A stretch of DNA of 64,000 nt. It comes from an uncultured Gammaproteobacteria bacterium (GTDB lineage: Bacteria; Patescibacteriota; Microgenomatia; UBA1406; GWC2-37-13). This document shows, piece by piece, positions 13,214-34,467 of the stretch. The stretch lies in the NCBI GenBank assembly GCA_964490875.1, contig CAZBEF010000007.1:5241-69240 (forward strand), read 5' to 3'. Under the pieces are notes generated by a model. That model did not search any database and was not told the origin of the DNA. It worked only from the letters and a program-made list of their open reading frames with translations. The stretch's first letter is position 1. The number at the start of each line of letters is the position of its first letter. A program made the translations under genes and the position numbers.

Positions 13214-16200
13214 CTACGGCGATCCGGTTATAGGAGTGAAGTTTACCGAAGATCCGTTGTTCATGATAGTTTTTATTTGAAGTGGGGTTAATGCATAATT
13301 AAATATCCTAACATCATCTATCTGACCATTAAAATTATATTCTGTATTAGGAGTAGCATCATCTCCTGCACCGATAATAGTATGAGTTGAAGTATCAGAA
13401 ATGGCACAAGAATCGGTTTTTGTTTTATCGAGAATTCCATTTTTATAAATTAAAAGGTCGCTGCCATTATATACTCCTACAACATGCGTCCATGAATTCA
13501 AAGGAACAGAGCTAACGCTAGTTGTCCCATATGAACCGCATTCACGAAGAAAATCAATTTGTGAAAGACCATTGATATCTAGATACCATTGTCCTGAAGT
13601 ACCAAAATTATATTTGGAAACGATGCGGCCTGCAGCAGACGGTACACTGGCTGGTTTTATCCATGCAGAGATACTGAACGGAACATTCCCTGTGAAATCA
13701 TAATTATCGCCCAGATCGACAGAGTCATTAGTACCATCAAAGCTTAATGAAGAATTAAATTTTCCATTCGCGCCGTTTTTCCATGCTGCGGTTGCTGCAC
13801 CGGTACATGTTCCGGCTGAAGTATTCGAACCAGTGGCGCCGATTGTAATTGTTCCATTATTTCCCGTTGTATTTTCGGTAAGATTAGGGGAGCTGTCATA
13901 TGCTGTAGTACCCTGGCATTCATCAAATTGGTACCATGCCACCGGCCCGCCATTGTTATAATCCCAGGCAATTTGCGCAGGAGTCCGTACATAATTATAT
14001 ATTTTTACATCATCTATAGTCCCGTTAAAGTTACTAGTGTTTGTTTTATGAGCACCGATTATAAAATCATTATTACCATCATAAGTAGTATCAGTTCCGT
14101 ATACACCTGAAAATGCGCTTTGAGTTGTATACGTAACTTCTGCTCCGTTAATATACATATGTATTTTCCTATCAGTAGAATTATTATAAGTAATATAAAA
14201 GTGATACCAGACACCTGTTGTTACACCCGTGGCTCTGGATATTGCATTATTTTTCAAAGATGAATCAAAATAAACAGTTCCGCTGATATTCACTACACCA
14301 AAATGCCAAATATGATCATCATTTCTACTTTTACCGGCAATAATTTCACCATTATTAACACCAGGTAGAGATTTCAATTTTATCCAGGCTGAAGCGCTAA
14401 AATTATTCGGCGGTAAATTACTTAGTGAAGAAGGGTTTGTTACTAATATATAATCATTGGTTCCATCAAAATCAAGTCCTTTACCAATTTTGCCTGCTAC
14501 CCAATCCGCCTGAGTCATACTTCCATTCATTGAACCAATATTGTTATTTCCGGAGGAATCAATAACGGTGGTTGTACCGTTGCCTTCATCCATTTTGAAC
14601 CATCCGACTGGAGCATTACATGTTGAAGTATCTCCTGGGACACAAAATGCACGGGCGGAAGAATTATCGGCTGTTATACCATTTGAAGCAGTTGAAACCA
14701 CACCCATGACAGTAGACTGCCCTTGGTTATAATCTAATTTAATCTGATCATCGGTAAGCGCTCCTCTATATATTTTTACTTCATCTATATCGCCGTTGAA
14801 TTCATCACCATTATCGGTGCCATCACGATCACCGATGTACAGTGAAACAGCATTGGAGAGGGAACTGGTAGCACCGAGTGATGTATTAGATCCCTCGAGT
14901 CTGCCATCAACAAAAATATCAATTTTTGAAGTACCCGTCTTTCGTGCTGCGATATAATGCCATGCCTGGTCAAACACATTGGTGGTAGACTGCGCCTGAT
15001 CATCTGGTGTCCAGCTGGTATCATCATCTATCGCAAATACTACTTTACCACTTGATGATCCATAGATTCCATATCCTTGAGATGTTGCTGAAGATTTATT
15101 GAGAATGTACTGTGTTCCTGATGCGGTACCATCAGATTTGATCCATGCAGTAAGGGTAAAATCATCTGCTGCTGCGAAATCAAAGTCATCATCATCGGCA
15201 CGTGATGCCCATTGGGCAGCATTGCCATCAAATGCTGCTCCATATTTTCCAGATAATGTAATTCCTCCTGAAGTACCCGAAAATACTAAATCATTGGCAT
15301 TGATTGAAACATCACAGAAATCATTTGTTCCACCGGAGCAAGTATTTAAAGCTCCTTCATCAAACTGCCAGTAGCCAACTTGGGAGCCAATAGGGGAACC
15401 ACCGATGGGGTGTCCGCCGTTCATATCTTCAATTACTTGTGCAGGAGAGCGAGTGTAGTTGTAGATACTAACGTCATCGATTTTTCCGGTGAAATCAAAA
15501 CCACCTAAACCATCTTCACCGATTGTTACATCATAACTAGAGTTAGATATGGTGGTAGATAAAGCAATTGTTTTTACTAGAATGCCATCTATATAAAATC
15601 GAATATTCGAACTGTCGTAGGTACAAGCAATGTAATGCCAATTCTTATCCAGAGTAAGCGCATTAGCTGAGTTAGTATTGTTACCGTTTACGTCGCAATA
15701 GAATGCTACTCGAGATAATCTGATCGAGTATTCTCCTGTGCCATGACTCCCTTTCGCAATAATTTCTCCAGAATCACTATCTCCTGCAGCTAGAAGTTGA
15801 ACCCATGCGCCTAATGTAAAGTTTTGTGAAGTTAGTTTATCATTATCTGCAATATATGCACTATTATTACTGCCATTAAAGGATAAACCTTTACCAAATT
15901 TTCCACTATCCCAACTTGGTGCAACTGTAAAAGCCCCATTGTTTTGATTACCACTACTATCAATAATACTTGACCCAGTACCCTCATCCATATTCCATTT
16001 CGCCACAGGTCCAGGAGCATAATTGTATAAAGCAGAAATTTCAGAAGGAGAAAGGGCACGATTATACAGTCTTGCTTCATCCAAGTCACCTTGAAATTCA
16101 TATTGGTTTAGATAAGCTGTTGACCACTGACCAAAAAGAACTTTATCAGAGGTGAATTTAACTGCTTTTGTAAGATCCCAGCCTTTATCAAAAGTACCGT

Positions 16201-17848
16201 TTATATAAAATTCAACTCTATTTCCTTTGCTTTTATATACTAAAACTACATGCACCCATTCACCAACTGTTGCATTAAAATTAGTAGCTTTATCTGCGTA
16301 TTCTCTTGTTTCATCTTGGTAACCTATAGAAACCCTAAAATTGTTATATAAGTTGATTCCTAGATTCGCATTAACGCTATGGTTATGCTTTGCGAATACC
16401 CCTTTCAAATTACCAGTTACTAAACTAGGTTTCACCCAAATACTATAAGTTTGATCACCACTTAAGTCAAAAGTGTCGCTACTTAAAGTATAATCATCAT
16501 TACCGTCAAAATGAGCACCGTTACCGAATTTTCCCACGCCATATGTTGTATCTCCTGACCAAGAGGCAGAGTGAGAATTACCAGAAAAGTCATTATTTGG
16601 AGTAGAAGTTTCATCCATTTTCCAATATCCAACCAGACCCGTAGAGAGATTTTTATTCATGTCGGAATTACCCATCGAAACACCAGCACCTTTCACACTT
16701 CCGCGAGAATTAAAATCTATTTTTACTTGGTCTGCAGAACGGGCATATGGGTATACTTTCACTGAATCAATAAATCCATCCCACGGATTAGCAAATCCAT
16801 TCTCAATTCCTAGCCGGAAAGCGGGGGAAGAGCCAGACAAAGATCCGGCTGTATAGGCTGTTTCCGTTATCTGTTTTCCATCAATATACAAATATATTTT
16901 AGTAGTCGCTGTGTCCTTCACACCACTCACATAATGCCATTGCGAATCGGCGTAACTGGTGGTGGTACAAGCAGAATTGGCAGGAAACGATCCTGCAGAT
17001 TGATCTATACCAAAGCATATATATCCGGAAGAATCCATATAGATTTTGTATCCAACTCCATTGGCATCGGCTCCATCAACACGGGAAATAATAACATCAG
17101 TCCCAGCTTGAATCGATGTGTGTTTAAACCAGGCGCTGACAGAAAAGCCTGCCGTTCCCGGATCAAGTTCTGTGTCTGAAGAGTAGGATTTTGAAACATA
17201 ATCATTTGAGCCGTCAAACTTCAGACACGATCCATTAACACACAAATCAGAAGCAGTCCAAGTTGGCGCACTGGTTGTAGTTCCAAGAGTTCCTGAATTT
17301 GCATTTAACGTATCATCATTTAAAGTAGAACCATTATTTTCATTCATGCTCCAGGAAAGAACAGGACCAACTGTTTGTTCTTCTGAAGCGGCAGTTGGAC
17401 CGGAGTTAGGACTGAAGGTAGATTGAGAAAATTGAGCAGCTTCGGTACCATTTGCTGCAGTTGAGTTTCCATAATAATGATAAATAATACTTCCACCCGC
17501 CGGAATTGACGGCATCAAAACATAATAATCGGTTGAATTCGTATTACACGCACCTCCTGCAGTATCAATATAATATTTCAGCAATTTACCGGCTGCATCG
17601 GTGAATCGAGAGTCTCCGCAGTCACTTTGCATTTTATTGGCAGTAATGAGAGTTGATGTGTCAATATCCAGTTTTACTTTTTTATTACCATCTGCAGAAC
17701 CGGTGTTGCCAATTGAAATGGCAACTCTATAGATCCAGTTGTCATCGAACCATCCGGCGTCCGGTTTTGCATGAGGCCATAACAGCCATGCACCTAAAAT
17801 CGTTATGATAAGAGGGAAAACAAGGAGCCGGTTCCATTTCAATCTCAT
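13214..17848 (-). CDS. DUF2341-like + 6x LamG (Laminin_G_3-type) surface protein, paralogue 1
   Basis: 1544-aa ORF with anchor MRLKWNRLLVFPLIITILGAWLLWPH. DUF2341-like motifs: WFDD..YR, DCGDSRFTD..GKLLKYY, YHYYGN. Six modules each end in a motif like IDxVKIYNxAxoxxQI, preceded by FDGxNDY and W.HV motifs. The C-terminus is NFTPITGSP. TATAAT lies 6 nt upstream of the ATG. Confidence 0.85.
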   Translation of the reverse strand: MRLKWNRLLVFPLIITILGAWLLWPHAKPDAGWFDDNWIYRVAISIGNTGSADGNKKVKLDIDTSTLITANKMQSDCGDSRFTDAAGKLLKYYIDTAGGACNTNSTDYYVLMPSIPAGGSIIYHYYGNSTAANGTEAAQFSQSTFSPNSGPTAASEEQTVGPVLSWSMNENNGSTLNDDTLNANSGTLGTTTSAPTWTASDLCVNGSCLKFDGSNDYVSKSYSSDTELDPGTAGFSVSAWFKHTSIQAGTDVIISRVDGADANGVGYKIYMDSSGYICFGIDQSAGSFPANSACTTTSYADSQWHYVSGVKDTATTKIYLYIDGKQITETAYTAGSLSGSSPAFRLGIENGFANPWDGFIDSVKVYPYARSADQVKIDFNSRGSVKGAGVSMGNSDMNKNLSTGLVGYWKMDETSTPNNDFSGNSHSASWSGDTTYGVGKFGNGAHFDGNDDYTLSSDTFDLSGDQTYSIWVKPSLVTGNLKGVFAKHNHSVNANLGINLYNNFRVSIGYQDETREYADKATNFNATVGEWVHVVLVYKSKGNRVEFYINGTFDKGWDLTKAVKFTSDKVLFGQWSTAYLNQYEFQGDLDEARLYNRALSPSEISALYNYAPGPVAKWNMDEGTGSSIIDSSGNQNNGAFTVAPSWDSGKFGKGLSFNGSNNSAYIADNDKLTSQNFTLGAWVQLLAAGDSDSGEIIAKGSHGTGEYSIRLSRVAFYCDVNGNNTNSANALTLDKNWHYIACTYDSSNIRFYIDGILVKTIALSTTISNSSYDVTIGEDGLGGFDFTGKIDDVSIYNYTRSPAQVIEDMNGGHPIGGSPIGSQVGYWQFDEGALNTCSGGTNDFCDVSINANDLVFSGTSGGITLSGKYGAAFDGNAAQWASRADDDDFDFAAADDFTLTAWIKSDGTASGTQYILNKSSATSQGYGIYGSSSGKVVFAIDDDTSWTPDDQAQSTTNVFDQAWHYIAARKTGTSKIDIFVDGRLEGSNTSLGATSSLSNAVSLYIGDRDGTDNGDEFNGDIDEVKIYRGALTDDQIKLDYNQGQSTVMGVVSTASNGITADNSSARAFCVPGDTSTCNAPVGWFKMDEGNGTTTVIDSSGNNNIGSMNGSMTQADWVAGKIGKGLDFDGTNDYILVTNPSSLSNLPPNNFSASAWIKLKSLPGVNNGEIIAGKSRNDDHIWHFGVVNISGTVYFDSSLKNNAISRATGVTTGVWYHFYITYNNSTDRKIHMYINGAEVTYTTQSAFSGVYGTDTTYDGNNDFIIGAHKTNTSNFNGTIDDVKIYNYVRTPAQIAWDYNNGGPVAWYQFDECQGTTAYDSSPNLTENTTGNNGTITIGATGSNTSAGTCTGAATAAWKNGANGKFNSSLSFDGTNDSVDLGDNYDFTGNVPFSISAWIKPASVPSAAGRIVSKYNFGTSGQWYLDINGLSQIDFLRECGSYGTTSVSSVPLNSWTHVVGVYNGSDLLIYKNGILDKTKTDSCAISDTSTHTIIGAGDDATPNTEYNFNGQIDDVRIFNYALTPLQIKTIMNNGSSVNFTPITGSP
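14714..15436 (-). repeat. conserved LamG module 4 cassette, copy in paralogue 1
   Basis: IEDMNGGHPIGGSPIGSQVGYW.FDEG ... FTLTAWIKSDGTASGTQYILNKSSATSQGYGIYGSSSGKVVFAIDDDTSWTPDDQAQSTTN.FDQ.WHYIAARKTGTSKID.F.DGRLEGS.TSLGA..SLSNAV..Y.GDRDGTDNGDEFNGD.DEVKIYRGALTD.QIK is shared by all four genes. Confidence 0.85.
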
Positions 17849-17854
17849 GGATTC

Positions 17855-17860
17855 ATTATA
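17855..17860 (-). promoter_or_regulatory. -10 box TATAAT, 6 nt upstream of the LamG paralogue 1 ATG (leaderless-type)
   Basis: Minus strand: ctacTATAATgaatccATG. Confidence 0.5.
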
Positions 17861-17929
17861 GTAGTAATATATATAGAAAAAAAGGAAGTATTTATGGATC
17901 CCACATCAGGTACGGGTTGACGCTTAATT

Positions 17930-20900
17930 TTATGGTGATCCGGTAATCGGGGCAAAATTTACTGCAGAGTTATTATTCATAACCGTTTTAATTTGAGCAT
18001 CGGTAAGTGCATATCGATATATTCGAACATCATCTATCTGTCCAATAAAAAATTCGCCTGTTGTATCGGTTGCACCGATATAAACAGTAGCGTTATCTGC
18101 ATCCGGAACTATACTGCCATTATCTACCCAGTTTCCCGTATATCGCTTACCATTGTAATACATCTTTATGGTACTTGAATCTCCTACGGTCATTGAATAT
18201 ACAACATGCTGCCACGTTCCAGTTGTTACCGGTGTTTGGGTTGTGGTATAGCAACCACCATCGACTGTACTGAAAATACAAAATTCTAATTGTCCAGCGT
18301 AACTTATTTGTGCATAATAACCATTCCCGGAAGCTCCTGGTTTGGCTAATATTGAGGAATATGTATTACCACCGATCGGCAAACTAGAAGGTTTTATCCA
18401 TGCAGAAATAGTCATTGTTTCTCCGCTGGCAAAATCGAAAGCGCTTTTAGTTGAATCGGTGATACTCACATAGTCATTGGTTCCATCCAAACTCAATGAG
18501 GATTTTATTTTTCCATTCACACCATTTTTCCATGCTTCGGTTGCTGCTCCGGTACACGTTCCTGCAGAAGTATTAGAACCGGTTGCTCCAATCGTAATAG
18601 CTCCGTTCATCCCTGTGGCACTAAAATTATTATTCGGCGAACTGTCATAGGAAGTGGTTCCCTGGCATTCATCGAACCGGTACCAGGCCGCCGGTCCGCC
18701 ATTGTTGTAATCCCAGGCAATCTGAGCGGGAGTACGGGCATAGTCATAATAACGAACATCGTCGATGATGCCATTGAATACTCCTGAACCATTTACACCG
18801 CCGATAAAAATCGCAAGCCGTGACTGATATGATAAAGTGCCTGTAGTGGCTTCTTGCGCAGCTACTTTTCCATCAATGTATATGTATTTATTAGTGCCAT
18901 CGTAAACAATACTTACATGTGTCCATTTGTTTGCCGTAAGAACATTACCGGTATCTAATGAATTATCAGATAAACCATAGCCTTGATGGCGTATTGCGCC
19001 ACCATCGAGCATTGACATCCGCCAGAAATTGTTAGCTGTTCTTGCGATAATGTACGGGTTAGATGGCTGGTTTAGTGTTGCAGGATTAATCCAAGCTGAC
19101 ACGGTATAACTGCCGGTTCCATCTAACACTGCAGAATACGTATTGGTAAAACTATTATCGTCGGATCCGTCAAATTTTAATCCAGATCCGTGTCTCCCGC
19201 GGGTCCACTCTGGATCAGAACTTTCAACACCGCTGCCACTTCCTAGGTATAAAAATAAACCATTGTTCATTATATCAGCGACTGTCTGACCGGCATGCTC
19301 CTCAAAGCGGAAATCAAGTATTGGCGGATTGCATGTTGCCGTATCTCCGGGTACACAATATTCTCTTGATGCGGAATTATCGGCGGTGCCATTTGAAGCA
19401 GTTGACTTAGCGCCCATCACCGTAGACTGCCCCTGGTTATAGTCCATTTTAATCTGTTCATCAGTTAAAGCGCCGCGGTATATTTTCACTTCATCAACAT
19501 CGCCGTTGAATTCATCGCCATTGTCTGTACCGTCACGGTCACCGACATAGAAGGAGACAGCATTGGAGAGAGAACCGGTTGCACCTAAGGATGTGTCTGA
19601 TCCTTCGAGTCTACCATCAACAAAGATATCAATCTTTGAAGTACCTGTTTTTCTTGCTGCGATGTGATGCCATGCCTGGTCAAAGATATTGGTTGTCGAC
19701 TGCGCCTGATCATCGGGAGTCCAGGAAGTATCATCATCTATCGCAAACACTACTTTACCCGAAGAAGATCCATAGATACCATATCCTTGTGAAGTTGCTG
19801 AGGATTTATTGAGGATATATTGAGTCCCCGACGCAGTGCCGTCTGTTTTTATCCATGTTGTTAGGGTGAAATCTTCTGCTGCTGCAAAATCAAAGTCGGC
19901 ATCATCGGCACGGGACACATACCGGCTGGCGTTCCCATCCCACGCCCGTCCATGCATTCCTGAAAGAGTCCATGCGGAGGTAGCCGTTGATAACGTGAGA
20001 TCGTTGGCATTTGGTGATGTGTCGTATGCAGTGGTACTATTTCCTTCATCAAACTTCCAGTATCCGACCTGAGAGCCAATGGGGGAACCGCCAACCGGAT
20101 GCCCGCCATTCATATCTTCTATAATTTGCGCCGTAGTACGTGCATAGTTGTAGATTTTAATATCGTCAAAGGTTGCGGGAGTATCGGTATCCGTACCGTT
20201 GTCAGCTCCGATATAAAAATTATTAATCTGAGTATCTATGAGAGAATAACTGGAAGTGGTCCCAACACTTACTCCATTAACAAATAATTCCGTAGTACCA
20301 TCACTGCGCCATACCGCTGCAACATGATACCAAGTACCCACCGTGGGAGCAGAAGTAGTTATTCTATTGATACTTCCACTATTGCTATACTCAAATCTTA
20401 AATTTGATGTTGAAGACTGAAGATAGAGTTCCATCGCATCATTGTCATCGCTTCTTCGAAGTTGTAGTAATTCTCTATATACGCCGCCTAAACCGCCATT
20501 CATCTTGTACCAAAACGAAATAGTCCCCTGATATTCATTTATATTGGCATTTGTAGCAGAATTGCTTAAATTTAAATAATCGTTTGCACCATCTAATTCT
20601 ATGGCAGAGCCAAATTTACCGGGCACCCAGGCGCTTGCTATAATTCCGCCACTCATAGAACCTGAAAGTCCATTTCCAGATTTGTCATAGACAGTAGAAG
20701 TCCCTGCTTTTTCATTGAGATCATAATAAACTGAAGTACCTGGTGTCCAATTATACAGAGACTTCAGTTCAGCAGTAGAAAGCGCGCGGTTATAAGCGCG
20801 TACTTCATCTATTGTTCCTTTAAACGTATCACTATTTCCATCCCACGAACCGATATAGGCAGCAGCAGCGCCATTGGATGCGAGGGTGTAATTACATGGG

Positions 20901-22576
20901 GAGCTCACTGCAACTCCATTCACATAAAATGTTGCAACATTGCTGCTTACTACAACTGCAACGTACTGCCATTGATTCAATGAAACAGCGGCGGTATTTG
21001 CTGAACAGCTTTGAAATCCGTTATACATTGTTAATGTTTGTTCTCCGGCATTATTTGAAATTTCAAACTGATACCCAACAGTACTTCCGCTTTGTCGGGA
21101 GAGAATTGTGCCGTAGTTTGCTTCACCCCAGCCAGTAGGATAAATCCAAGCAGCGAGTGTCATATTCTGAGTGAAATCTAAATTCGTACTTGTTCCTAAA
21201 CTTATATCGTCATCCGTTCCATCAAACTGAAGTCCTGATCCGTATTTGCCGGTAGCCCATGCGGTACCAGAGTTCAGGGTTCCACTCGCATATGAACCAA
21301 TAGTATTTGTAGTTGAAGATCCGGAGCTTTCATCATGTTTCCAGTAGCTGACAAGACCGTTAGATAACGATTTATTCACGTCTGAATTACCCATTTGTAC
21401 ACCTACGCCTTTCACACTTCCACGTGAATTAAAATCAGTTTTTACCTGGTCTGCGGAACGGGCATAGGGGTATACTTTCACCGAATCGATAATCCCGTCC
21501 CATGGATTGGCCGCTCCGTTATCAATTCCTACACGGAAAGCAGGGGATGATCCGCTGATAGAAGAGGCAGTTATTGAAGTATCTGCAGCAATCTGCTGAC
21601 CATCGATATACAGAATTACAGAGGTAGTTCCATTCTTCACTCCTGTTACCTGATGCCATTTTGAGTCGGCATAACTACCTTGTGTCGAAGTCGAGCAGGC
21701 AGAATCTACAGGGAATGAACCGGCAGTCTGGTCTATTCCAAAACAGATATATCCGGAGGAGTCCATATAGATTTTGTATCCGACTCCATTGGCATCCGCG
21801 CCATCTACTCGTGAAATAATCACGTCCGTACCTGCTTGGATAGAAGTATGTTTAACCCACGCACTTACCGAGAAACTACCTGTTCCCGGATTCAGTTCGG
21901 TGTCGGAAGAATAGGTCCGCGACACATAATCGTTTGTACCATCAAACTTAAGACAGGAGCCGTTTACACATAAGTCAGAGGATATCCACGTAGGAGCGCT
22001 CGATGTAGTGCCTAATGTTCCGGTGTTGGCATTTAATGTATCATCATTCAATGTTGAACCACTTGCTTCATTCATACTCCAGGAAAGAACTGGTCCGGTG
22101 CCAGTTTCCTGATTGGTGACATCAGTTATTGCCGGGTCACCACCGCTTGGGGTAAGTGCGGTAACCGCGGATACATCTTGGCTCGCAGAAGTTGCGGAAG
22201 GATTTCCATAGTACACATATCCAATATTCGATCCATTGATAACACTGGGAAAAACAACTTCAAATGTTGTTGCTGCGTTGTTGCATGTACCAGTTAATTG
22301 GTATTTCAAAAGTTTTCCATTAATATCGGTGAATCGTACATCGTCACAATCGGTCTGCATAGCACCATTGCCGATAATTTCTGCGGTATCAAGACTGAAG
22401 GTTACTGCCCGTTCTGTAGAAATAGCTGCATTATGAGAAAATGAGATTTTCTGCCGATAGCCGTACCCATCATCGAACCAGCCTGCTTCGGGTTTTCCAT
22501 GCGGCCATAAGAGCCATACACCAATAATTGCGATTAACAGGGGAATAACCAGGAGCCGATTCCATTTCAATCTCAT
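17930..22576 (-). CDS. DUF2341-like + 6x LamG surface protein, paralogue 2
   Basis: 1548-aa ORF with the same architecture and anchor (MRLKWNRLLVIPLLIAIIGVWLLWPH). Module 1 and module 4 are nearly identical to paralogue 1. The C-terminus is NFAPITGSP. TATAAT-N6-ATG. Confidence 0.85.
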   Translation of the reverse strand: MRLKWNRLLVIPLLIAIIGVWLLWPHGKPEAGWFDDGYGYRQKISFSHNAAISTERAVTFSLDTAEIIGNGAMQTDCDDVRFTDINGKLLKYQLTGTCNNAATTFEVVFPSVINGSNIGYVYYGNPSATSASQDVSAVTALTPSGGDPAITDVTNQETGTGPVLSWSMNEASGSTLNDDTLNANTGTLGTTSSAPTWISSDLCVNGSCLKFDGTNDYVSRTYSSDTELNPGTGSFSVSAWVKHTSIQAGTDVIISRVDGADANGVGYKIYMDSSGYICFGIDQTAGSFPVDSACSTSTQGSYADSKWHQVTGVKNGTTSVILYIDGQQIAADTSITASSISGSSPAFRVGIDNGAANPWDGIIDSVKVYPYARSADQVKTDFNSRGSVKGVGVQMGNSDVNKSLSNGLVSYWKHDESSGSSTTNTIGSYASGTLNSGTAWATGKYGSGLQFDGTDDDISLGTSTNLDFTQNMTLAAWIYPTGWGEANYGTILSRQSGSTVGYQFEISNNAGEQTLTMYNGFQSCSANTAAVSLNQWQYVAVVVSSNVATFYVNGVAVSSPCNYTLASNGAAAAYIGSWDGNSDTFKGTIDEVRAYNRALSTAELKSLYNWTPGTSVYYDLNEKAGTSTVYDKSGNGLSGSMSGGIIASAWVPGKFGSAIELDGANDYLNLSNSATNANINEYQGTISFWYKMNGGLGGVYRELLQLRRSDDNDAMELYLQSSTSNLRFEYSNSGSINRITTSAPTVGTWYHVAAVWRSDGTTELFVNGVSVGTTSSYSLIDTQINNFYIGADNGTDTDTPATFDDIKIYNYARTTAQIIEDMNGGHPVGGSPIGSQVGYWKFDEGNSTTAYDTSPNANDLTLSTATSAWTLSGMHGRAWDGNASRYVSRADDADFDFAAAEDFTLTTWIKTDGTASGTQYILNKSSATSQGYGIYGSSSGKVVFAIDDDTSWTPDDQAQSTTNIFDQAWHHIAARKTGTSKIDIFVDGRLEGSDTSLGATGSLSNAVSFYVGDRDGTDNGDEFNGDVDEVKIYRGALTDEQIKMDYNQGQSTVMGAKSTASNGTADNSASREYCVPGDTATCNPPILDFRFEEHAGQTVADIMNNGLFLYLGSGSGVESSDPEWTRGRHGSGLKFDGSDDNSFTNTYSAVLDGTGSYTVSAWINPATLNQPSNPYIIARTANNFWRMSMLDGGAIRHQGYGLSDNSLDTGNVLTANKWTHVSIVYDGTNKYIYIDGKVAAQEATTGTLSYQSRLAIFIGGVNGSGVFNGIIDDVRYYDYARTPAQIAWDYNNGGPAAWYRFDECQGTTSYDSSPNNNFSATGMNGAITIGATGSNTSAGTCTGAATEAWKNGVNGKIKSSLSLDGTNDYVSITDSTKSAFDFASGETMTISAWIKPSSLPIGGNTYSSILAKPGASGNGYYAQISYAGQLEFCIFSTVDGGCYTTTQTPVTTGTWQHVVYSMTVGDSSTIKMYYNGKRYTGNWVDNGSIVPDADNATVYIGATDTTGEFFIGQIDDVRIYRYALTDAQIKTVMNNNSAVNFAPITGSP
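19412..20125 (-). repeat. conserved LamG module 4 cassette, copy in paralogue 2
   Basis: Same cassette. Approximate bounds from hand alignment. Confidence 0.8.
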
Positions 22577-25600: not shown

Positions 25601-28580
25601 ATCCAAATCGTAATGGACCAGCACCGCTGCCGTCATACATGGTGCCTGTAAGATTGGTTATCCCTTCAGCAATTCCATTACAGTAGACTCGCAAAATTGA
25701 TCCCTCTTTTACACCCACCACATGATACCAGGTGCCGGTAGTCAAAGCTGAATTGCATGAAGCAAAAAAGTGAGTCTGGTCTGTATTTGTCCAACGCATA
25801 ATCGGTTTATTTGACGAAGAACTAACATACAGAAGATATGATAAATTGCTTAGGCCTGGTTTACTAATTAAGCTTCCATCTTGTGCCATAACCGTTGGCA
25901 GAGTATCAAGCTTAACCCATGTGGCAACCGAAAAGTCACCGGAAGAATAAAAATCTGCTGAATTTGTTACAGTAACCTCATCATCGGTTCCATCGAAGTT
26001 TCCAGCATAGCTGAATTTACTGGTAGAAGTTGTAGTAGCACCATTCACAGATATACCGTGATGGGAATTACCGCTTGAGTCTACAACTTCATTTGTTGTA
26101 CCATTCCAGCTAGCTTCATCCATTTTCCAATAGCCGACAAGGCCTTCGGTAAGGAAATCATTCGAACCTTGCCCAAGTATTGCAGCATTGCCTTTTGGCG
26201 CCGCCAGGGGAGGGCGTGCAGAATCTGCCAGAATCTGTGCATCGCTTCTGGCGTAGCGGTATACTTTTACGGTATCGAGGAATCCGCCGTATGGATTGCT
26301 GCTTCTGTCGCTGTCTATGCCAAGGTAAAAGTCATTACTGTTTGACAGTGTACCGGTTGCGGCGATGGAGGTATCTGAGGCAACCTGTTTTCCGTCAATA
26401 TACAGTTTAAGACTGGTAGTTCCATTTTTGACTGCGTCAAAATGATGCCATTCATTATCATCATATGTTGCCTCAGTTGTTGTTGCAGAGTCGGAGTTTG
26501 AGCCGTCACTTACAGAAAAGGTGAGATCGCCATCAGATTCCATTTGGAGTTTGTATCCGGTATTTGCAGAAGTAGTACAGCTTCCGGTGTTTATGATTTT
26601 GGTATCTACATTTACCGTGCCGAAGCTTCCAATCCATGCATGCATCAAGTCGCAGTTTTGATAATTGAACGCAGACGAGAAATATTTAACTTCGTTCGCA
26701 TCGAAGCTGTTTACCCATAATGTAGCTGATCCGTTCCATGTGGTGCCGCCGTCGGAGGAGTAATTGTAGTAGATATCAGTATTGTCAGAGTTATTCATAC
26801 CGAACACATACACCTTATCTGCGCCTGCATCGACGGTATCAACTGCGGCAGAAACATATCCATCATACTGTGCTGCTTGTGCTGCAACATTGACTATTGT
26901 ATCAACCTGTGTAGATAGTGATCCGTTCAATGTATTCACCACATATGCATCTAGATCATTGGTTCCTTCGTCAGCCGCAAAAGAAATGTTTCGTGTATTG
27001 AAAACCACTGAATTGTATCCTTCGTTATTTGCTGCATATTCTACAGCAGTTTCCAGCTCTTGCTCGGTTCCCAAGCGGTTAGTTTCGCCATAAAAAAAAT
27101 TTGTTTCCAAATCAGAGCTTGCCGTACCGCCGTCGGTATCTATCCAGAAGAGTTGGAAGTCTAGGTTGCCAAACGATTTTATGCCGACACCCATATCGGC
27201 ATTAAAACCGCCGGCTGTTGCGATATCTTCCATGGGGAAACCAGTCTGTGAAGTCCAGGTACCGTCACCGCATGGCGCAGCTTCTTTCCACAGCCATACT
27301 TCGTGCTGATCTCCGGCTGCTTCGGTTGAATCCTGATAATCTGCAATTATCATCGAGCAGCCGTACATATCGGTTGCGATGCGCGGAAACTGGATGTCAT
27401 CGTTGTTGCTTTTTCCGACATCCGAGCTTTCGTATACTTCCTGTTGGGCGTCACAGGTAATATATGGAGCAGAACCGGTTAAGCTGCACCGTGTATAGAA
27501 CAGTTGATCGGTCGAGACGGTAGAATATGTACAGTGGAGATACGTTGAGGGTCCATCGGTATCGACAGAACAGCCATAATCTTCATACTCATATGTTCCG
27601 GCCGCAATTGCGCCGGAGCCATCAAATGTTACTCCAGAAGTTGCAGCGGTTGATCTGTCAAAAATATCGGCGTTCGAATCTATGTATATCACATGCCAGC
27701 GTTTGTTATTGGGGTCATAGACAACACGGTTGAGCCACGAAGCATCATATCCACCGATACCTTCGACTGTTGAAGTGGTGATAGTTGTTGTTGCCGTTGA
27801 ACCGGTTCCTAAGGTTGTTTGTTGTTTACTCAGCAGCACATCGGTTCCCGAAGTTTTAGGAGCATGGCGGAACCAGCCGGAAACGGTAAACGAATCAGAA
27901 GCGGCGAAGTTAAGATCAGATTTAGTGTTTACCATTGCAAAATCGTTGGTACCATCAAATGAGAGACAATTTCCGTCCAGACATTGATCAGCAGATTGTC
28001 TGGTTACACCCGAGGCAGCAAGATCTGTTCGCTCCTGCATTGTATCGCAGAGGTCATTTCTTCCGCCAAAGCAGGTATTGTCTGATCCCTCATCAAATTT
28101 CCAGTAAGCGATCGGTGCGGTAGAGCCTTCTTCTGTAGCGGGTGTACCAACAGAGACATTGGTAGCAGCAGAAGAGAAATCTACAGTTTGGAAACCGTTT
28201 GAAGCCCAGGCGTTGCCATAATAAATGTATATATCTTGAGCGCCGGCGGCTAAGGTATCAAAGTTAATATGAAAAGATGTTGAAGCAGATCCACATCCCG
28301 AAACAATATAGTAGGGGAGAATTTCACCGTTAGCTTTTACAAAGCGAATATCACCGCAGTCAGTTTGGAAACGGGAAAGATTAGAGGTGTCAAAACTGGA
28401 AAGGGTGACATACTTGTTGGTTTCCGTAGAAGTATTATTGGTTACAGTAATTTTCTTCCGGTACTGAAAATTATCATCATACCATCCTGCGGTTGGTTTA
28501 CCATGCGGCCATAACAACCAAAACCCAATTAGAACAATTAGAAGTGGTAATGCAAGAATAGGCTTCCACCGAAATTTCAT
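22629..28580 (-). CDS. DUF2341-like + 6x LamG surface protein, paralogue 3, with a nested ~420-aa Asp-box-containing insert
   Basis: 1983-aa ORF. The N-terminal 215 aa are very close to paralogue 4. The insert splits module 1 between ..GTDVLLSKQQTT and NTGYKLQMESDG and contains SSDGGTTW (Asp-box/BNR). The C-terminus is NFAPITGSP. Confidence 0.85.
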   Translation of the reverse strand: MKFRWKPILALPLLIVLIGFWLLWPHGKPTAGWYDDNFQYRKKITVTNNTSTETNKYVTLSSFDTSNLSRFQTDCGDIRFVKANGEILPYYIVSGCGSASTSFHINFDTLAAGAQDIYIYYGNAWASNGFQTVDFSSAATNVSVGTPATEEGSTAPIAYWKFDEGSDNTCFGGRNDLCDTMQERTDLAASGVTRQSADQCLDGNCLSFDGTNDFAMVNTKSDLNFAASDSFTVSGWFRHAPKTSGTDVLLSKQQTTLGTGSTATTTITTSTVEGIGGYDASWLNRVVYDPNNKRWHVIYIDSNADIFDRSTAATSGVTFDGSGAIAAGTYEYEDYGCSVDTDGPSTYLHCTYSTVSTDQLFYTRCSLTGSAPYITCDAQQEVYESSDVGKSNNDDIQFPRIATDMYGCSMIIADYQDSTEAAGDQHEVWLWKEAAPCGDGTWTSQTGFPMEDIATAGGFNADMGVGIKSFGNLDFQLFWIDTDGGTASSDLETNFFYGETNRLGTEQELETAVEYAANNEGYNSVVFNTRNISFAADEGTNDLDAYVVNTLNGSLSTQVDTIVNVAAQAAQYDGYVSAAVDTVDAGADKVYVFGMNNSDNTDIYYNYSSDGGTTWNGSATLWVNSFDANEVKYFSSAFNYQNCDLMHAWIGSFGTVNVDTKIINTGSCTTSANTGYKLQMESDGDLTFSVSDGSNSDSATTTEATYDDNEWHHFDAVKNGTTSLKLYIDGKQVASDTSIAATGTLSNSNDFYLGIDSDRSSNPYGGFLDTVKVYRYARSDAQILADSARPPLAAPKGNAAILGQGSNDFLTEGLVGYWKMDEASWNGTTNEVVDSSGNSHHGISVNGATTTSTSKFSYAGNFDGTDDEVTVTNSADFYSSGDFSVATWVKLDTLPTVMAQDGSLISKPGLSNLSYLLYVSSSSNKPIMRWTNTDQTHFFASCNSALTTGTWYHVVGVKEGSILRVYCNGIAEGITNLTGTMYDGSGAGPLRFGSQNGGSRLDGQMDDTRFYNRALSPSEVTALYKWAPGPVGYWKLDENTGATTIYDASGNNLTGTINGNMSQSSWTQGKFGSALMFDGSDDYIDITDNGKLSPTSALSISTWVKFNQLSSTKGESQRIVRKVCAGAVCANNSSYILEYHNTTNNIRFSVHLGGSLIYVKTADNSIVPNTWYYLTAVYDSATSNIKIYINGVDQTAFQSGAASGAIQVDTSALLLGAHSSSASRVDGAIDDVRIYNYARTQAQIIEDMNASHPIGGSPVGSQVGYWKFDEGALNTCANGTDDFCDSSINANDLAFSGTAGGITLSGKFNKAFDGNAARWASRADDDDFDFAAADDFTLTAWIKSDGTASGTQYILNKSSATSQGYGIYGSSSGKVVFAIDDDTSWTPDDQAQSTTNVFDQTWHYIAARKTGTSKIDLFIDGRLEGSDTSLGATGSLSNAVAFYVGDRDGTDNGDEFNGDVDEVKIYRGALTDDQIKLDYNRGSSIILGSTSTASDGVTVDNSQSREFCVPGDTATCNPPVGWWRLDEGTGSTTYDNSSNLLNGTITSAGWIPGVKGNALAVGTGKYVTVSDNSLIKPTSAITVETWFRSTDITTSQRIISKKNTTGFRLALSTSTCTSSSALCFLLRIAGVDQSVVYSRTNLSNNTWYHAAGTYDGANMKLYVNGVLVSTVPMTGTIQQGTQPLCFGAESASSDCTGGSALLGDIDNVMIYDYARSAAQIAWDYNHGGPIAHYKLDECSGTTAYNSVLNGNGLAAGLNGTISIGATGSNTAPGTCTGAATEAWKNGANGKINSSLSFDGTDDYISVADPGTNSILDLSSVGSHSFWVKFNSLPIDEAFFVTKGDASKNNYYSALCTTASCGTPNSLICGVYNGVSGDELTYLFTPTLGRWYHIACTYDDPNNTINLFLDGKLMSSKTDATSDFSSAVNNGELRIGRERDVYGYYFNGQIDDVRIFSYALSPAQVKTIMNNSSSVNFAPITGSP
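24121..24851 (-). repeat. conserved LamG module 4 cassette, copy in paralogue 3
   Basis: Same cassette. Long runs are nucleotide-identical to the paralogue 1 copy (for example ccatagattccatatccttgagatgt...gtactgtgttcctgatgcggtaccatcagatttgatccatgcagtaagggtaaaatcatctgctgctgc). Confidence 0.8.
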
Positions 28581-31600: not shown

Positions 31601-34010
31601 CTATACGCAATGGTCCGGATGAATTGTAGGTCAGGGTATCAAAATCATTCGCAGAAGCATCTTCAACACCGTTAATAAACATTTTTGCCGAAAGTAAATT
31701 CTTGGAAAATGCGACATGATACCATGTACCGGCAGTAAGGGCAGTTGATCCAGTTAATACATCATTTCCGCCGGATGAATTGTACCATTCGAATCGGAGC
31801 TTGTTATCGGACGATTGTACATACCACTGATAAGCATTAAACGGACTAACGCTATGACTTTTTCGAATAATAAATGCGTTTTGTCCGGTAGATGAAGGAA
31901 GTGCAGTCATTTTAATCCAGGCGCTTGCGGTAATATCAGACGGAGACAGGTTATCGCTGTCTGCGATTTGAATATAATCGTTGGTTCCATCAAACGCAGC
32001 CGCATTGCCGAATTTAGCAACTGTTGTAGAAGTGGCACCATTTGTCCAAGCACCGTCATTCAGATTTCCCGCTGAATCACACGAATCGTTGCTGCCTCCT
32101 GCACAGGTGTTGGCTGCTGATTCATCAAGTTTCCAATATCCAATCAATCCTTTATTTAAATAATCGTTAGAACCCGCGCCTAACATAACACTGTTTCCTT
32201 TTCCTGTCTGTCCGTTTGGACGGATTGCATCATTTTTTATTTGTGCGGCTGTCCTGGCATAGCCATAGTATTTTACTTCATCGATAAATCCGTCCCATGG
32301 GTTGCTGGAACCATCTGCATCTATACCGATTTTCATGGGAGACGCAGTCCCAGTAATTGAAGAAGAGGTAATAGATACATCCTGTGCAACCTGTTGTCCA
32401 TCGATGTATAATGTTATGCTCGAAGTTCCTGATTTAACTCCTGCAATATGGTGCCATTGATTATCGGCATACGAGGTAGTTGTGCACGCAGAATCTGATG
32501 GGAATGAACCTGCGGCATCATCAATACCAAAACATACGCCATTAGTTGCATCATAATAGAGTTTATATCCAATACCATTAACCCCGTCAGCACGGGAAAT
32601 TATTGTATCCGTTCCTGTTATTGTTGTGGGATGTTTAAACCAGCCAGAAATGGTAAAACTTCCAGTTCCCGGATCAAGCTCCGGATCACCTCCTGAGCCC
32701 GAGTTGGCTTTAAAAGTAGCAAGTGCAGAAGTCCAACGCTGATTGGTACCTGCAGTACCGCCGATTTCCATAGATTGTGAAGAAGTCAAGATCTGATAAC
32801 CCGATTTAATTGAAGTCGCGGAACCTGTTTGTGTGGCATTATATGTCCATCCTGGAATTAAACCACTCAGGGTAGTAGAGGCGGTAATTCCCATATATCC
32901 GACAGCGACTTCATTGGCATAGGTTGTAACGTCCTGTGTGGTTCCTGAATCCGGATTATTAGTGTTATTATTGTCGTTATAATCCATAGCCCATTGATCG
33001 AATGGGCTGGCTGAAATACCGGATAATTCTACAACGGATACACTCAACGAAGAAGATGCACTTCCGCTTACTCCTATCGAAGTCGCTCCGCTTGAAGTTA
33101 GTGAATACCACAGTTCACCGGTGTTTTGTATAGCCGTTGTTTGATGCCGGCAGTTGGTACATTCTGTATAAGTATTTCCACCATTATCTTGGACACTGTA
33201 TGTCCGGGTGGGGCCCTGGTTTGTCTGTAACATAACAACAACCAGATTTCCTGCAGTTGTACTACATGAAACGTTTAAATTAACACCTCCGCTGATATTT
33301 GTACCAGAATTACTACATTCCTTGACAAACTGTGCAAGGTTGCCACTTGTCCCTCCAGCTTTACTTATTGAATCGTTTGTTCCATCAAATTGAAGGCATT
33401 TACCCGAGACACAATTGTCTTCTGATTTCCAGCTGGCGCCAGAAAGTACCAGATCGTTTTGTTGAGGAGTGGAATCACATGCGTCATTCGTACCGTCTGA
33501 ACAAGTATTATCTATTCCTTCATCAAATTTCCAGTATGAGACAGGACCTGGTGAATTTTCTTCAGATCCAGGAGTACCGACCGAAGCATTGGTAGCTGCA
33601 GAGGAGAAATCAGAAGAAACGCCACCATTGGAAACAGTGGAATTTCCATAATAAATATAAATATCCTGAGCACCGGCGACTAAGGTATCGAAATTAATGT
33701 GGAATGAAGTAGAGGCAGTGCCACAGCCGGAGACAATATAATAAGGGAGGATTTCACCATTTTGTTTTACAAAGCGTACATCACCGCAGTCAGATTGAAA
33801 ACGGTTTGTATCTGATGTGTCAAAACTGGAGAGCGTTACATATTTATTCGATTCGGTTGAAGTATTATTAGTAACTGTAATTTTTTTCCGGTAGAGCCAT
33901 CCCTCGTTGTACCATTCTGCAGAAGGATTACTGTGCGGCCATAAGAGCCATAATCCGATGAGTCCTATTAGTAAGGGAATAATAAGCAGTCGATTCCATC
34001 TCAGCTTCAT
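28647..34010 (-). CDS. DUF2341-like + 6x LamG surface protein, paralogue 4, with a nested ~220-aa insert of unknown type
   Basis: 1787-aa ORF. The insert lies between FDGTNDSISKAGG and DPELDPGTGSFTISGWFKH of module 1. The C-terminus is LYAPITGSP. TATAAT-N6-ATG. Confidence 0.85.
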   Translation of the reverse strand: MKLRWNRLLIIPLLIGLIGLWLLWPHSNPSAEWYNEGWLYRKKITVTNNTSTESNKYVTLSSFDTSDTNRFQSDCGDVRFVKQNGEILPYYIVSGCGTASTSFHINFDTLVAGAQDIYIYYGNSTVSNGGVSSDFSSAATNASVGTPGSEENSPGPVSYWKFDEGIDNTCSDGTNDACDSTPQQNDLVLSGASWKSEDNCVSGKCLQFDGTNDSISKAGGTSGNLAQFVKECSNSGTNISGGVNLNVSCSTTAGNLVVVMLQTNQGPTRTYSVQDNGGNTYTECTNCRHQTTAIQNTGELWYSLTSSGATSIGVSGSASSSLSVSVVELSGISASPFDQWAMDYNDNNNTNNPDSGTTQDVTTYANEVAVGYMGITASTTLSGLIPGWTYNATQTGSATSIKSGYQILTSSQSMEIGGTAGTNQRWTSALATFKANSGSGGDPELDPGTGSFTISGWFKHPTTITGTDTIISRADGVNGIGYKLYYDATNGVCFGIDDAAGSFPSDSACTTTSYADNQWHHIAGVKSGTSSITLYIDGQQVAQDVSITSSSITGTASPMKIGIDADGSSNPWDGFIDEVKYYGYARTAAQIKNDAIRPNGQTGKGNSVMLGAGSNDYLNKGLIGYWKLDESAANTCAGGSNDSCDSAGNLNDGAWTNGATSTTVAKFGNAAAFDGTNDYIQIADSDNLSPSDITASAWIKMTALPSSTGQNAFIIRKSHSVSPFNAYQWYVQSSDNKLRFEWYNSSGGNDVLTGSTALTAGTWYHVAFSKNLLSAKMFINGVEDASANDFDTLTYNSSGPLRIGSDNGTTNFYGQIDDVRLYNRGLEPREIAALFNWAPGPVAYWKLDENTGTTTKDSSGNNNTSSAFSGTTSWQPGKFNSSVYFTGNNSVIRIPETTSTDLGAASESYTVSAWVKTIGTTGDRVVVGKMDYNDSSLAPFYLIIDNTNFVCFNIDSGSNPAACTPNNSLSANVWHYLTGVRDVATDKIYIYVDGILQGSATDSTTGSMKNDYDIAIGNGGNSYNQWDFLGNIDDVKIYNYVRTPAQIIEDMNGGHPMGGSPVGSQVGYWKFDEGALNTCSGGTNDFCDSSINANDLAFSGTAGGITLSGKFNKAFDGNAARWASRADDNDFDFAAADDFTVSAWIKTDGTASGTQYILNKSSATSQGYGIYGSSSGKVVFAIDDDTSWTPDDQVQSTTNIFDQAWHYIAARKTGTSKIDIFVDGRLEGSNTSLGATGSLSNAVAFYVGDRDGTDNGDEFNGDVDEVKIYRGALTDDQIKMDYVRGSSTVLGYTSTTSDGITADNSASREYCIPGDTATCNPPIGEWKMDENTGTTSTADTSGNNNNAAMNGSITASQWSPGKSGNAISFDGNNDYVQADNTTLYDMGTSTAFTISGWFKSNSAGTTQNIFMAINNTSNFYRIQLNGGFLRAQLVDTGSSNFCTLRNTSATVDDGKWHYFAAQFNRNASCTTSDIVIYIDGLKESTTVVSSGINTNVNLDESGIRIGGNSSFFNGLIDSIRLYDYIRTPSQIAWEYNRSNPVVQYKFDECSGTTIYNSMLTGDGQAAGNNGTITIGATGSNTSAGTCTGAATEAWKNGANGKFGSSLDFDGSNDYVNIGAVTALNPTTNGFSISTWAKATAWPSALQMLLAKYTSGLNGEYFLGIYQNKARAILVGTGGTKISNSSTTLTDNTWTHIVVTWSGVAADPLLIYINGQLNTSTEQNDSLTAFSTAVQGDYIGTRNSAADAFFDGQIDELRYYNFPLTSAQVKTLYNNNASVLYAPITGSP
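30135..30870 (-). repeat. conserved LamG module 4 cassette, copy in paralogue 4
   Basis: Same cassette. Approximate bounds. Confidence 0.8.
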
Positions 34011-34016
34011 TATTTC

Positions 34017-34022
34017 ATTATA
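34017..34022 (-). promoter_or_regulatory. -10 box TATAAT, 6 nt upstream of the LamG paralogue 4 ATG
   Basis: Minus strand: cacaTATAATgaaataATG. Confidence 0.5.
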
Positions 34023-34062
34023 TGTGATTATTGTTACAATGTGAGCGTAATTTTACCAGATA

Positions 34063-34467
34063 TCACAAGTGATGGGGCTCTAATTTCATCTGAAAATGAG
34101 GATCGTCAAGAAAAATTTTTATTGTGGCGCATACTTCTTCCGGATCAAATCGGACTTTGAGTATATATCCTTGGGCGCCTAATTGGAATGTATGTTCAAT
34201 GATTTCTTTGTCTGCAAGATTGGTAATCATCACAACCGGAATATCTTTGGTTTTTTTGTCGGATTTTAGTTTTTTCAGAACATCTATACCATGAATTTTA
34301 GGAAGCATTATGTCCAGCAGAATAAGATCCGGTTTCGTTTGTGCCTGTTCAAGAGCTTGTGTTCCATCTAGCGCAGTTACTACGGTGTACTGTTTTTTTT
34401 TAAGAACGTATTCGTACATTTCCCGGATAAAAATATCATCTTCAATAAGCAGAATTTTTTTAGACAT
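34063..34467 (-). CDS. single-domain response regulator (CheY-like receiver only)
   Basis: KILLIEDD, LILLDIMLP (acceptor Asp), VVMITN and GYILK motifs; no output domain. The start at MSKK is supported by TATACT-N6-ATG. The track start at 34482 is an alternative. Confidence 0.85.
   Translation of the reverse strand: MSKKILLIEDDIFIREMYEYVLKKKQYTVVTALDGTQALEQAQTKPDLILLDIMLPKIHGIDVLKKLKSDKKTKDIPVVMITNLADKEIIEHTFQLGAQGYILKVRFDPEEVCATIKIFLDDPHFQMKLEPHHL

Follow-up and report, generated by a model that had tools for sequence, protein, structure and literature searches.

The stretch of DNA analyzed here, referred to below as the window, comprises 64,000 nucleotides (nt) of contig CAZBEF010000007.1 from an uncultured bacterium placed by GTDB in the Microgenomatia (Patescibacteriota). 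Its minus strand carries four very large tandem genes whose products, P1 to P4, combine a signal/anchor segment, a DUF2341 domain and six LamG modules. The array formed by these genes is a member, unusually high in copy number, of a large and uncharacterized family of predicted surface proteins of the candidate phyla radiation (CPR). The genes and their DUF2341 domains are listed below in window positions.

13214–17848, minus strand: paralogue P1, 1544 amino acids (aa); signal/anchor segment, DUF2341 of type A, six LamG modules, C-terminal NFTPITGSP
17930–22576, minus strand: paralogue P2, 1548 aa; DUF2341 of type B, six LamG modules
22629–28580, minus strand: paralogue P3, 1983 aa; DUF2341 of type C, six LamG modules and a nested domain of ~417 aa
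28647–34010, minus strand: paralogue P4, 1787 aa; DUF2341 of type C, six LamG modules and a nested domain of ~231 aa
17435–17758, minus strand: DUF2341 domain of P1 (Pfam PF10102)
22163–22486, minus strand: DUF2341 domain of P2 (Pfam PF10102)
28176–28496, minus strand: DUF2341 domain of P3 (Pfam PF10102)
33606–33926, minus strand: DUF2341 domain of P4 (Pfam PF10102)

Architecture and distribution of the DUF2341–LamG proteins

An earlier reading of this stretch, made from the sequence only, had described four co-oriented open reading frames (ORFs) of exactly these lengths, sharing a blueprint of one DUF2341-like domain and exactly six LamG modules, and profile searches bear out that description with both Pfam models above cutoff in all four proteins. 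Laminin_G_3 (PF13385) matches six separate stretches in each protein with 469–497 bits against a cutoff of 27.6 (E-values of 6e-143, 3e-147, 1e-150 and 5e-142 for P1 to P4, respectively), and the motif G.IDDV+IY at the module ends is readable six times in P1 and in P3. DUF2341 (PF10102) is matched at aa ~74–138 with 27.8, 31.0, 35.3 and 36.2 bits for P1 to P4, respectively, against a gathering cutoff of 23.4 bits. The remaining Pfam matches, to Toxin_R_bind_N, Pentaxin, Laminin_G_1/2, the sialidase N-terminal lectin domain and TS_C, are cross-hits of one ConA-like fold. Predicted surface proteins occupy ~33 of the 64 kb, which agrees with the earlier estimate of more than half. That reading had named an assembly duplication of a single gene as the other outcome, besides failed profile searches, that would undo it, and such a duplication is ruled out: P1 to P4 are 44–50% identical overall, synonymous sites have diverged even in module 4, and in the most similar segment of the four genes synonymous differences are found at 31–49% of the codons for identical residues.

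The architecture had been presented as one without a known counterpart, and in this respect the sequence-only reading was not borne out, since the four proteins belong to a large family whose members in many CPR genomes already carry DUF2341 or LamG-like jellyroll labels. With P1 as query, 582 proteins were found at E ≤ 1e-10, the majority being 1,450–2,400 aa long with matching Pfam content; dozens of those of 1,450–1,650 aa align over 98–100% of the query at 35–56% identity, and an alignment of 30 sequences has a mean column identity of 39%. The names among the matches are ‘DUF2341 domain-containing protein’, ‘LamG-like jellyroll fold domain-containing protein’ and ‘hypothetical protein’, and the named matches come from Roizmanbacteria, Daviesbacteria, Amesbacteria, Microgenomates and Patescibacteria; large DUF2341 proteins in Patescibacteria have been noted before (PMC11809585). 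Species-representative genomes hold at least 479 family loci, mostly in Microgenomates, WWE3 and CPR3. The locus counts given throughout refer to 78 distinct loci among these (L002–L079; L001 duplicates L002), drawn from Davies-, Ames-, Woese-, Roizman-, Shapiro- and Levybacteria, WWE3, CPR3 and a few Parcubacteria. Counting genes of at least 900 aa within 10 kb on either side, 53 loci have one copy, 19 have two, five have three and one has four. Because 2–4 copies are thus present in 25 of the 78 loci, the four-gene array of the window marks the upper end of a common pattern. Many third-party records of metagenome-assembled genomes that bear the family (L002, L007, L008, L015 and others) are titled ‘uncultured Gammaproteobacteria’, ‘Pseudomonadales’ or ‘Anaerolineae’, and these titles are probably placeholder or wrong taxonomic labels.

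The N-termini of P1 to P4 are consistent with export. All four begin with a basic-hydrophobic segment, (K/R)W(N/K)(R/P)(L/I)L..PL.I..IG.WLLWPH, that ends in WLLWPH; this motif is restricted to the lineage of the window rather than family-wide. An AxA-like site follows a basic-hydrophobic N-terminus and lies just ahead of the invariant tryptophan of DUF2341 in 77 of 120 homologues, and the window paralogues have a proline at position −3 of the putative signal-peptidase site. The shared N-terminal signal anchor described earlier is therefore present, and the shared C-terminal nonapeptide is not strictly so: only PITGSP is identical in all four proteins, the last nine residues being NFTPITGSP, NFAPITGSP (twice) and LYAPITGSP. 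These ends conform to a family tail, ...(R/N)F(G/A)PxTGxP, at the exact C-terminus, and P..G.[PQ] ends 73 of the 120 homologues; the tail is probably not essential, being missing from about a third of them. Assignment as a sortase (LPXTG-type) substrate was rejected because the PxTG-like motif ends at the stop codon, with neither a hydrophobic segment nor a basic tail. Cysteine counts are even (16 in P1, 14 in P2, 32 in P3 and 24 in P4), the residues are mostly close pairs, and those in DUF2341 and the linkers (C77, C101, C1069, C1311 and C1348) are invariant or nearly so among 30 aligned homologues. Such even, paired and conserved cysteines form the pattern expected of disulfide-bonded extracytoplasmic proteins.

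The DUF2341 domain itself has W33, R41, C77 and C101 as invariant residues in the same 30-homologue alignment. An AlphaFold2 model of aa 27–165 of P1, computed from a 23-sequence alignment, is a beta-sandwich with a pLDDT of 85 and a pTM of 0.80. The PDB holds no match to this domain by sequence profile and nothing significant by fold (best E 0.08, TM ≤ 0.39), and for this reason no function can be transferred from a known structure. DUF2341 is also found on MotA/ExbB-like channel subunits (PMC12505986). The domain by itself therefore defines no function.

Type IV pili are common in CPR bacteria, and DUF2341 is found in every one of the four paralogues. One alternative is that P1 to P4 are tip adhesins or accessory proteins of a type IV pilus, with DUF2341 docking onto the filament as proposed for archaeal epd loci (COG ‘MJ1470, predicted component of type IV pili-like system’). 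DUF2341 proteins encoded in Methanococcus type IV pilus loci have been proposed as PilY1-like tip adhesins (PMC4858521), and a screen for transformation defects recovered transposon insertions in the DUF2341 gene of an epd locus (PMC10133366). The resemblance to the epd proteins lies in an N-terminal DUF2341 beta-sandwich within a large exported protein and in the suggestion that such a protein acts on a surface filament as an adhesin or accessory (PMC4858521, PMC10133366). However, the neighborhood of P1 to P4 lacks type IV pilus genes and prepilin motifs: a prepilin-type motif is absent from the window and present in only two of 79 related loci, PilB-, PilC- and PilT-like domains are absent among the window ORFs scanned with Pfam, and the recurrent neighbors of the family are a fiber gene and a Wzy_C+TPR gene, described below, rather than pilus genes. 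Moreover, the N-termini are of Sec type and not class III signal peptides, and the six-LamG body and the tail-fiber-like partner are specific to the CPR family. A pilus role is quite unlikely on this evidence.

A second filament-borne comparison is TafC, the tip subunit of the tat-fimbriae of Haloarcula hispanica, in which a LamG/ConA-like domain on a filament is the presumed adhesin (PMC11821415). TafC is a protein of 373 aa exported by the Tat route with an N-terminal donor-strand pilin-like domain, none of which applies to P1 to P4. Membership of the TafC family (NCBIfam NF052521) was rejected, as P1 to P4 score 170–192 bits against a cutoff of 410 and match only the LamG part (model positions ~148–362).

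Mosaic paralogues and module exchange

Aligned four ways, the paralogues form a sharp mosaic: conservation covers the signal segment, parts of DUF2341, the linkers between modules and the C-terminal tail, and the LamG modules differ widely in how similar they are. Module 4 is the near-invariant one, and its positions are listed here, those of P2 to P4 as read from the four-way alignment.

14609–15421, minus strand: LamG module 4 of P1 (aa ~810–1080)
19322–20110, minus strand: LamG module 4 of P2
24024–24836, minus strand: LamG module 4 of P3
30045–30857, minus strand: LamG module 4 of P4

Across P1 to P4, module 4 shows 85–95% amino acid identity (93–97% in its core), whereas the cores of modules 2, 3, 5 and 6 are merely 21–35% identical; for module 1 the value is 82% between P1 and P2 and ~45–55% in the other pairs. 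How does one module stay nearly the same in four genes whose other modules have diverged? One hypothesis is that recent gene conversion is the sole source of the identity, and this was rejected on the basis of a synonymous divergence (dS) of 0.64–2.15 and a non-synonymous divergence (dN) of 0.04–0.13 (Nei–Gojobori). The resulting dN/dS of 0.06–0.09 argues that the near-identity is held by strong purifying selection. An older homogenization is also likely, since dS in module 4 lies below that of the saturated flanks, and older conversion followed by purifying selection would fit better, with tracts of up to 100% identity seen in tandem pairs of other genomes. Module 4 also contains all of the longest stretches of exact nucleotide identity between paralogues (83 nt for P1–P3; 71, 62 and 47 nt for P3–P4; 32 nt for P1–P4). 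Runs of such length suffice for homologous recombination.

The same division between constant and variable modules recurs elsewhere in the family. In tandem pairs from several other genomes, modules 1 and/or 4 are 80–100% identical and modules 2, 3, 5 and 6 are 15–35% identical; module 4 is not conserved in the pairs P0015/P0023, P0084/P0102 and P0100/P0109. Between genomes, module 4 is moderately conserved, finding its best matches at position 4 in nearly all cases (57–59% identity), and the best matches of the variable modules are weak (33–55%) and frequently located at other module positions. Two further sources of variation were sought: the array contains no short tandem repeats of the kind that act as phase-variation switches, and, with regard to a diversity-generating retroelement, no template/variable repeat pair is found beyond the paralogy itself and no reverse transcriptase among the ORFs scanned, some small ORFs being outside that scan.

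More direct evidence for exchange comes from the closest relative found, a metagenome contig of the European Nucleotide Archive (L080) with ~70–77% nucleotide identity to the window. This contig has two paralogues where the window has four, in the order TPR membrane protein, response regulator, P0003, HicB/HicA, P0001 and fiber; the HicB/HicA toxin–antitoxin pair lies at 8165–8644 of that contig, between the two paralogues. P0001 is chimeric with respect to the window: its DUF2341 is 91% identical to that of P1 and its module 1 shares 80–86% identity with P1 and P2, modules 2 and 5 are P4-like (66–67% and 84% identity, respectively), and modules 4 and 6 are P2-like (94% and 70–72%, respectively). 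Nucleotide BLAST of the contig against the window returns the same patchwork as the protein comparison. The chimerism and the matching patchwork provide direct evidence, at the level of sequence comparison, that entire modules were transferred from one paralogue to another after the two lineages diverged. Moreover, at least three sequence types of DUF2341 (A in P1, B in P2, C in P3 and P4) are common to several genomes, which argues that the paralogues are old lineages whose parts get re-assorted. The earlier suggestion of interchangeable lectin specificities fits this mosaic, with four hypervariable modules in each protein and module exchange seen against the closest relative.

Clustered paralogues in which conserved blocks serve as recombination substrates and variable blocks alter the exposed surface are known from the sapA homologues of Campylobacter fetus and from Treponema tpr. 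The present array resembles them in its conserved and variable blocks and in chimeric genes that tell close relatives apart. It differs in having no single invertible promoter and no silent cassettes, and instead four full-length copies, each with its own −10 element, in which the variable unit is the whole LamG module.

Two of the paralogues carry additional domains nested in LamG module 1, a feature absent from the sequence-only reading.

26565–27815, minus strand: insert of ~417 aa inside LamG module 1 of P3, unannotated (four-way alignment)
32676–33368, minus strand: insert of ~231 aa inside LamG module 1 of P4, unannotated (four-way alignment)

The P3 insert has neither a Pfam nor a PDB sequence match and contains one Asp-box-like motif, SSDGGTTW, surrounded by weak repeat-type matches; a single-sequence AlphaFold2 model failed (pLDDT 35). 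A search of 1.84 billion representative sequences found ~55 near-full-length relatives (at least ~340 aa) at 25–50% identity within proteins of ~550–2800 aa, and the insert thus appears to be a rare but real domain; ten proteins that share it carry no informative Pfam label. The P4 insert has no Pfam match and no PDB match better than E 0.6, and none of the 120 homologues or of the locus ORFs matches it.

Could the proteins instead be secreted to bind or degrade polysaccharides, for the scavenging of nutrients rather than for contact between cells? The ConA-like fold is common to glucanases, Pfam gives weak matches to 3-keto-disaccharide hydrolase and sialidase lectin domains, and the P3 insert has its Asp-box-like motif. 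However, no catalytic family reaches its Pfam cutoff save via cross-hits of the LamG fold, neither insert matches any enzyme family, and the conserved partnership with a fiber protein would be unexpected for soluble enzymes. A scavenging role is very unlikely on these grounds.

The fiber partner and other neighboring genes

The features that flank the array are listed below.

2–8509, plus strand: giant repetitive fiber protein, >2,835 aa; the ORF is open from base 2 of the window and its 5′ end is cut off
7172–7345, plus strand: Peptidase_G2 (phi29 gp12-type) chaperone autocleavage region of the fiber; its DFAEYF motif starts at 7202
8644–10119, minus strand: unannotated gene between fiber and array, 491 aa
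10238–12784, plus strand: unannotated gene between fiber and array, 848 aa
34063–34482, minus strand: receiver-only response regulator, 139 aa, 52 nt upstream of P4
34579–36288, plus strand: 569-aa polytopic membrane protein with TPR repeats at its C-terminus, its gene divergent from that of the response regulator

The fiber is the conserved and dominant neighbor of the family, a linkage that the sequence-only reading had kept as background. Homologues of it are present in 48 of the 78 loci, and in 38 of the 53 informative loci, which are those that have a large upstream ORF, it lies directly upstream of and co-oriented with the family genes. It lies 4.7 kb from P1 in the window, and an orthologue with 65% identity abuts the array in the closest relative. 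The gene is repetitive: a ~300-nt unit occurs seven times, and the copies of a ~2.6-kb super-repeat are 92% identical. Peptidase_G2 (PF11962) is matched with 30.8 bits (cutoff 25, E 2.5e-7) in a scan limited to the C-terminal 722 aa, and is not reported when the whole protein is scanned with Pfam. The DFAEYF motif aligns, weakly (E 0.06), to residue 1 of the released C-terminal fragment of gp12 (PDB 3gqh), homologues of the chaperone region carry PF11962 or PF13884, and the protein continues for ~430 aa past the Peptidase_G2 site, including a coiled-coil-like stretch. PHROG gives a tail-fiber match at E 7e-6. The chaperone domain of phi29 gp12 type points to a trimeric, tail-fiber-like rod that would cleave itself.

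The fiber therefore shares with phi29 gp12 and the phage tailspikes (PF11962, PF13884) a Peptidase_G2 domain and a long repetitive rod, and differs from them in being chromosomal, conserved across CPR, >2,800 aa long and paired with DUF2341–LamG proteins, with no other phage genes nearby. An alternative reading would make the fiber and LamG genes the remnant, or the domesticated form, of a phage tail-fiber and receptor-binding module from a prophage or tailocin. The Peptidase_G2 domain is typical of phage tailspikes and fibers and the tail-fiber match agrees with it; the LamG proteins match PHROG ‘virion structural protein’ families (E 4e-70), and phages of CPR bacteria encode ConA/LamG proteins (PMC11310336). 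However, the generic LamG fold accounts for those PHROG matches, capsid, terminase, portal, baseplate and integrase genes are absent both from the window and from the recurrent neighbor clusters, which are of housekeeping type (Rho, ArgRS, NDK, ComEC), and the fiber–LamG module keeps the same gene order across several phylum-level groups of CPR. Such a phage remnant or domesticated module, in place of a cellular attachment system, is highly improbable for these reasons, though evolution of the parts from a prophage or tailocin is plausible.

The two genes that lie between fiber and array have no significant Pfam or PHROG match and no homologue in 79 related loci, and both are absent from the syntenic closest relative, where the fiber adjoins the array; they are probably a lineage-specific insertion and not core parts. 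On the downstream side, the first gene in 17 of 67 loci encodes a ~695-aa polytopic membrane protein whose C-terminus carries TPR repeats, and one such neighbor passes Wzy_C, an O-antigen-ligase-like Pfam model, with 37.7 bits against 31.7. The protein at 34579–36288 has an architecture like that of this Wzy_C+TPR neighbor without homology in sequence; Pfam gives TPR alone, a 64%-identical orthologue occupies the same position in the closest relative, and the protein is possibly an accessory factor. Recurrent neighbors beyond those already named are an M23 peptidase and 23S-rRNA-IVP four-helix proteins, and such genes, Rho, ArgRS, NDK and ComEC included, are housekeeping or mobile. Genes for four-helix bundles of ~123 aa (Pfam 23S_rRNA_IVP) recur beside family genes in 18 related loci, for instance at 9531–9911 of L016, between the fiber and the first LamG gene, and at 6515–6886 of L046 and 13909–14280 of L013, between or after LamG genes. 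Within the window, a small protein at 36980–37495 (plus strand), adjoining a P-type ATPase gene, has weak matches to RnlA/RNase LS toxin domains (E ~2e-4, below the Pfam cutoffs) and may be a toxin–antitoxin remnant.

The frequent Wzy_C+TPR neighbor, a putative O-glycosylation-type membrane enzyme, bears on a further alternative, in which P1 to P4 are structural proteins of the envelope or of a surface layer (S-layer), possibly glycosylated, whose variable modules evade phages or predators rather than bind a host, as in the sap family of Campylobacter fetus. The proteins are large, have paired cysteines and would be exported, the genes stand in tandem with conserved and variable blocks, and recombination between copies is in evidence. 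However, Pfam detects no known S-layer anchoring domain in P1 to P4, LamG/ConA modules typically bind ligands, each gene has its own −10 element in place of the single invertible promoter of sap, and the conserved pairing with a tail-fiber-like protein suits an appendage more than a lattice. An S-layer role is unlikely on balance.

The sequence-only reading had placed the array downstream of a receiver-only response regulator and had given each paralogue a promoter of its own. The regulator is present and is of the receiver-only type, PF00072 being its sole Pfam match, but its position is conserved only in the closest relative, where a 60%-identical orthologue is found; receiver proteins lie near family genes in two of the 78 loci and not upstream of them. 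For this reason, the response regulator was rejected as a conserved partner of the family. A dCache-HAMP-PAS histidine kinase is encoded at 52395–54650 (minus strand), 18 kb from the orphan receiver, and nothing links the two. The promoter elements were read from the sequence as −10-like hexamers 6 nt before the ATG.

17855–17860, minus strand: TATAAT before P1
22583–22588, minus strand: TATAAT before P2
28587–28592, minus strand: TACAGT before P3
34017–34022, minus strand: TATAAT before P4

Their spacing would, by standard promoter geometry, put the transcription start at or next to the ATG and thus yield a leaderless mRNA. The hexamers support independent transcription of each paralogue, but they are not special to the array, since TATAAT stands 5–8 nt before the ATG, without a Shine–Dalgarno sequence, at many unrelated genes of the window (36980, 40395, 45071, 45867, 47160, 60716 and others). 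This recurrence suggests that the mRNAs of this genome are normally leaderless or nearly so, and an arrangement so general carries no information on whether one paralogue is expressed at a time. Scans for a full −35/−10 consensus and for terminators gave nothing above shuffled controls at gene boundaries. The fiber partner and the recombination-driven mosaic are more informative than either the response-regulator link or the promoter argument.

Proposed role at the cell surface

We hypothesize, with a probability of about one half, that P1 to P4 are exported multi-lectin proteins of a CPR family that work together with a tail-fiber-like appendage and are diversified by recombination between copies. 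Each protein would consist of a Sec-type signal/anchor, the DUF2341 beta-sandwich and six LamG/ConA-like modules, joined by conserved linkers that contain cysteines and stabilized by disulfides. The fiber would form a surface appendage, and the DUF2341–LamG proteins would be its ligand-binding partners or be displayed alongside it. DUF2341, module 1 and module 4 would serve as constant scaffold or docking parts, and differing specificities for glycans or host surfaces would come from the hypervariable modules 2, 3, 5 and 6 and from the nested domains of module 1. Homologous recombination between the tandem paralogues would create and reshuffle this diversity, with crossovers at the conserved linkers and above all in module 4, and each paralogue could be transcribed separately from its own −10 element.

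The attachment system suggested by the sequence-only reading is something that we, too, infer. Surface proteins of LamG/ConA type have already been proposed as attachment factors in CPR and DPANN (PMC11310336, PMC13059738, PMC9563170). The giant proteins of episymbionts, such as the ConA/LamG proteins of Patescibacteria and SPEARE of Nanohaloarchaeota, are likewise very large, exported, lectin-like, encoded in reduced genomes and proposed to act in host contact (PMC11310336, PMC13059738, PMC9563170, PMC11809585). They are, however, heterogeneous collections of domains, whereas the CPR family has a fixed blueprint (DUF2341, six LamG modules and a PxTGxP tail), a fixed fiber neighbor, and constant and variable modules that are specific to position. 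The family labels and the idea of attachment by LamG proteins in CPR and DPANN are thus already known; full-text literature searches found no description of the blueprint, its fiber partner or its module shuffling, which is not proof that none exists.

Several points weigh against the proposed role. Every step of it is derived from sequence, no ligand-binding residues were identified in the LamG modules, and LamG folds occur also in enzymes and in purely structural proteins. The fiber gene is convergent with the array, and not co-oriented, both here and in the closest relative, two unrelated genes separate it from the array in the window, and ~30 of the 78 loci have no fiber within 10 kb, many of these being ended by contig edges. 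No homologue of the Wzy_C+TPR protein was found in the window. Module 4 of P0003, in the closest relative, has diverged, so that similarity of module 4 within a genome is not universal. Finally, given the proline at −3, the window paralogues may stay anchored in the membrane instead of being released.

A broader and doubtful proposal is that Microgenomates, WWE3 and related CPR bacteria share a dedicated attachment organelle built from phage tail-fiber parts, in which a self-cleaving trimeric fiber would carry exchangeable six-LamG receptor-binding proteins, docked via DUF2341, module 1 and/or module 4, and tandem paralogues would recombine at module 4 and the linkers into new sets of lectin modules.

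What has so far been a generic ‘DUF2341/LamG hypothetical protein’ is now a defined and widespread gene module with a fixed blueprint, a fiber partner, constant and variable parts, and module exchange. Its variable modules are the targets for work on ligand specificity, and module 4 and DUF2341 are those for work on docking; copy number and chimerism are usable as metagenomic markers of host adaptation. Should the function prove mundane, for example structural within the envelope, the mosaic evolution would remain a clear example of surface variation driven by recombination in a reduced-genome bacterium. How most CPR cells recognize and attach to a host or substrate is largely unknown, especially in Microgenomates, of which very few are cultured. 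If the broader proposal of a shared attachment organelle is true, these organisms, which depend on other cells, would possess a built-in means of combinatorial switching of their host or substrate range.

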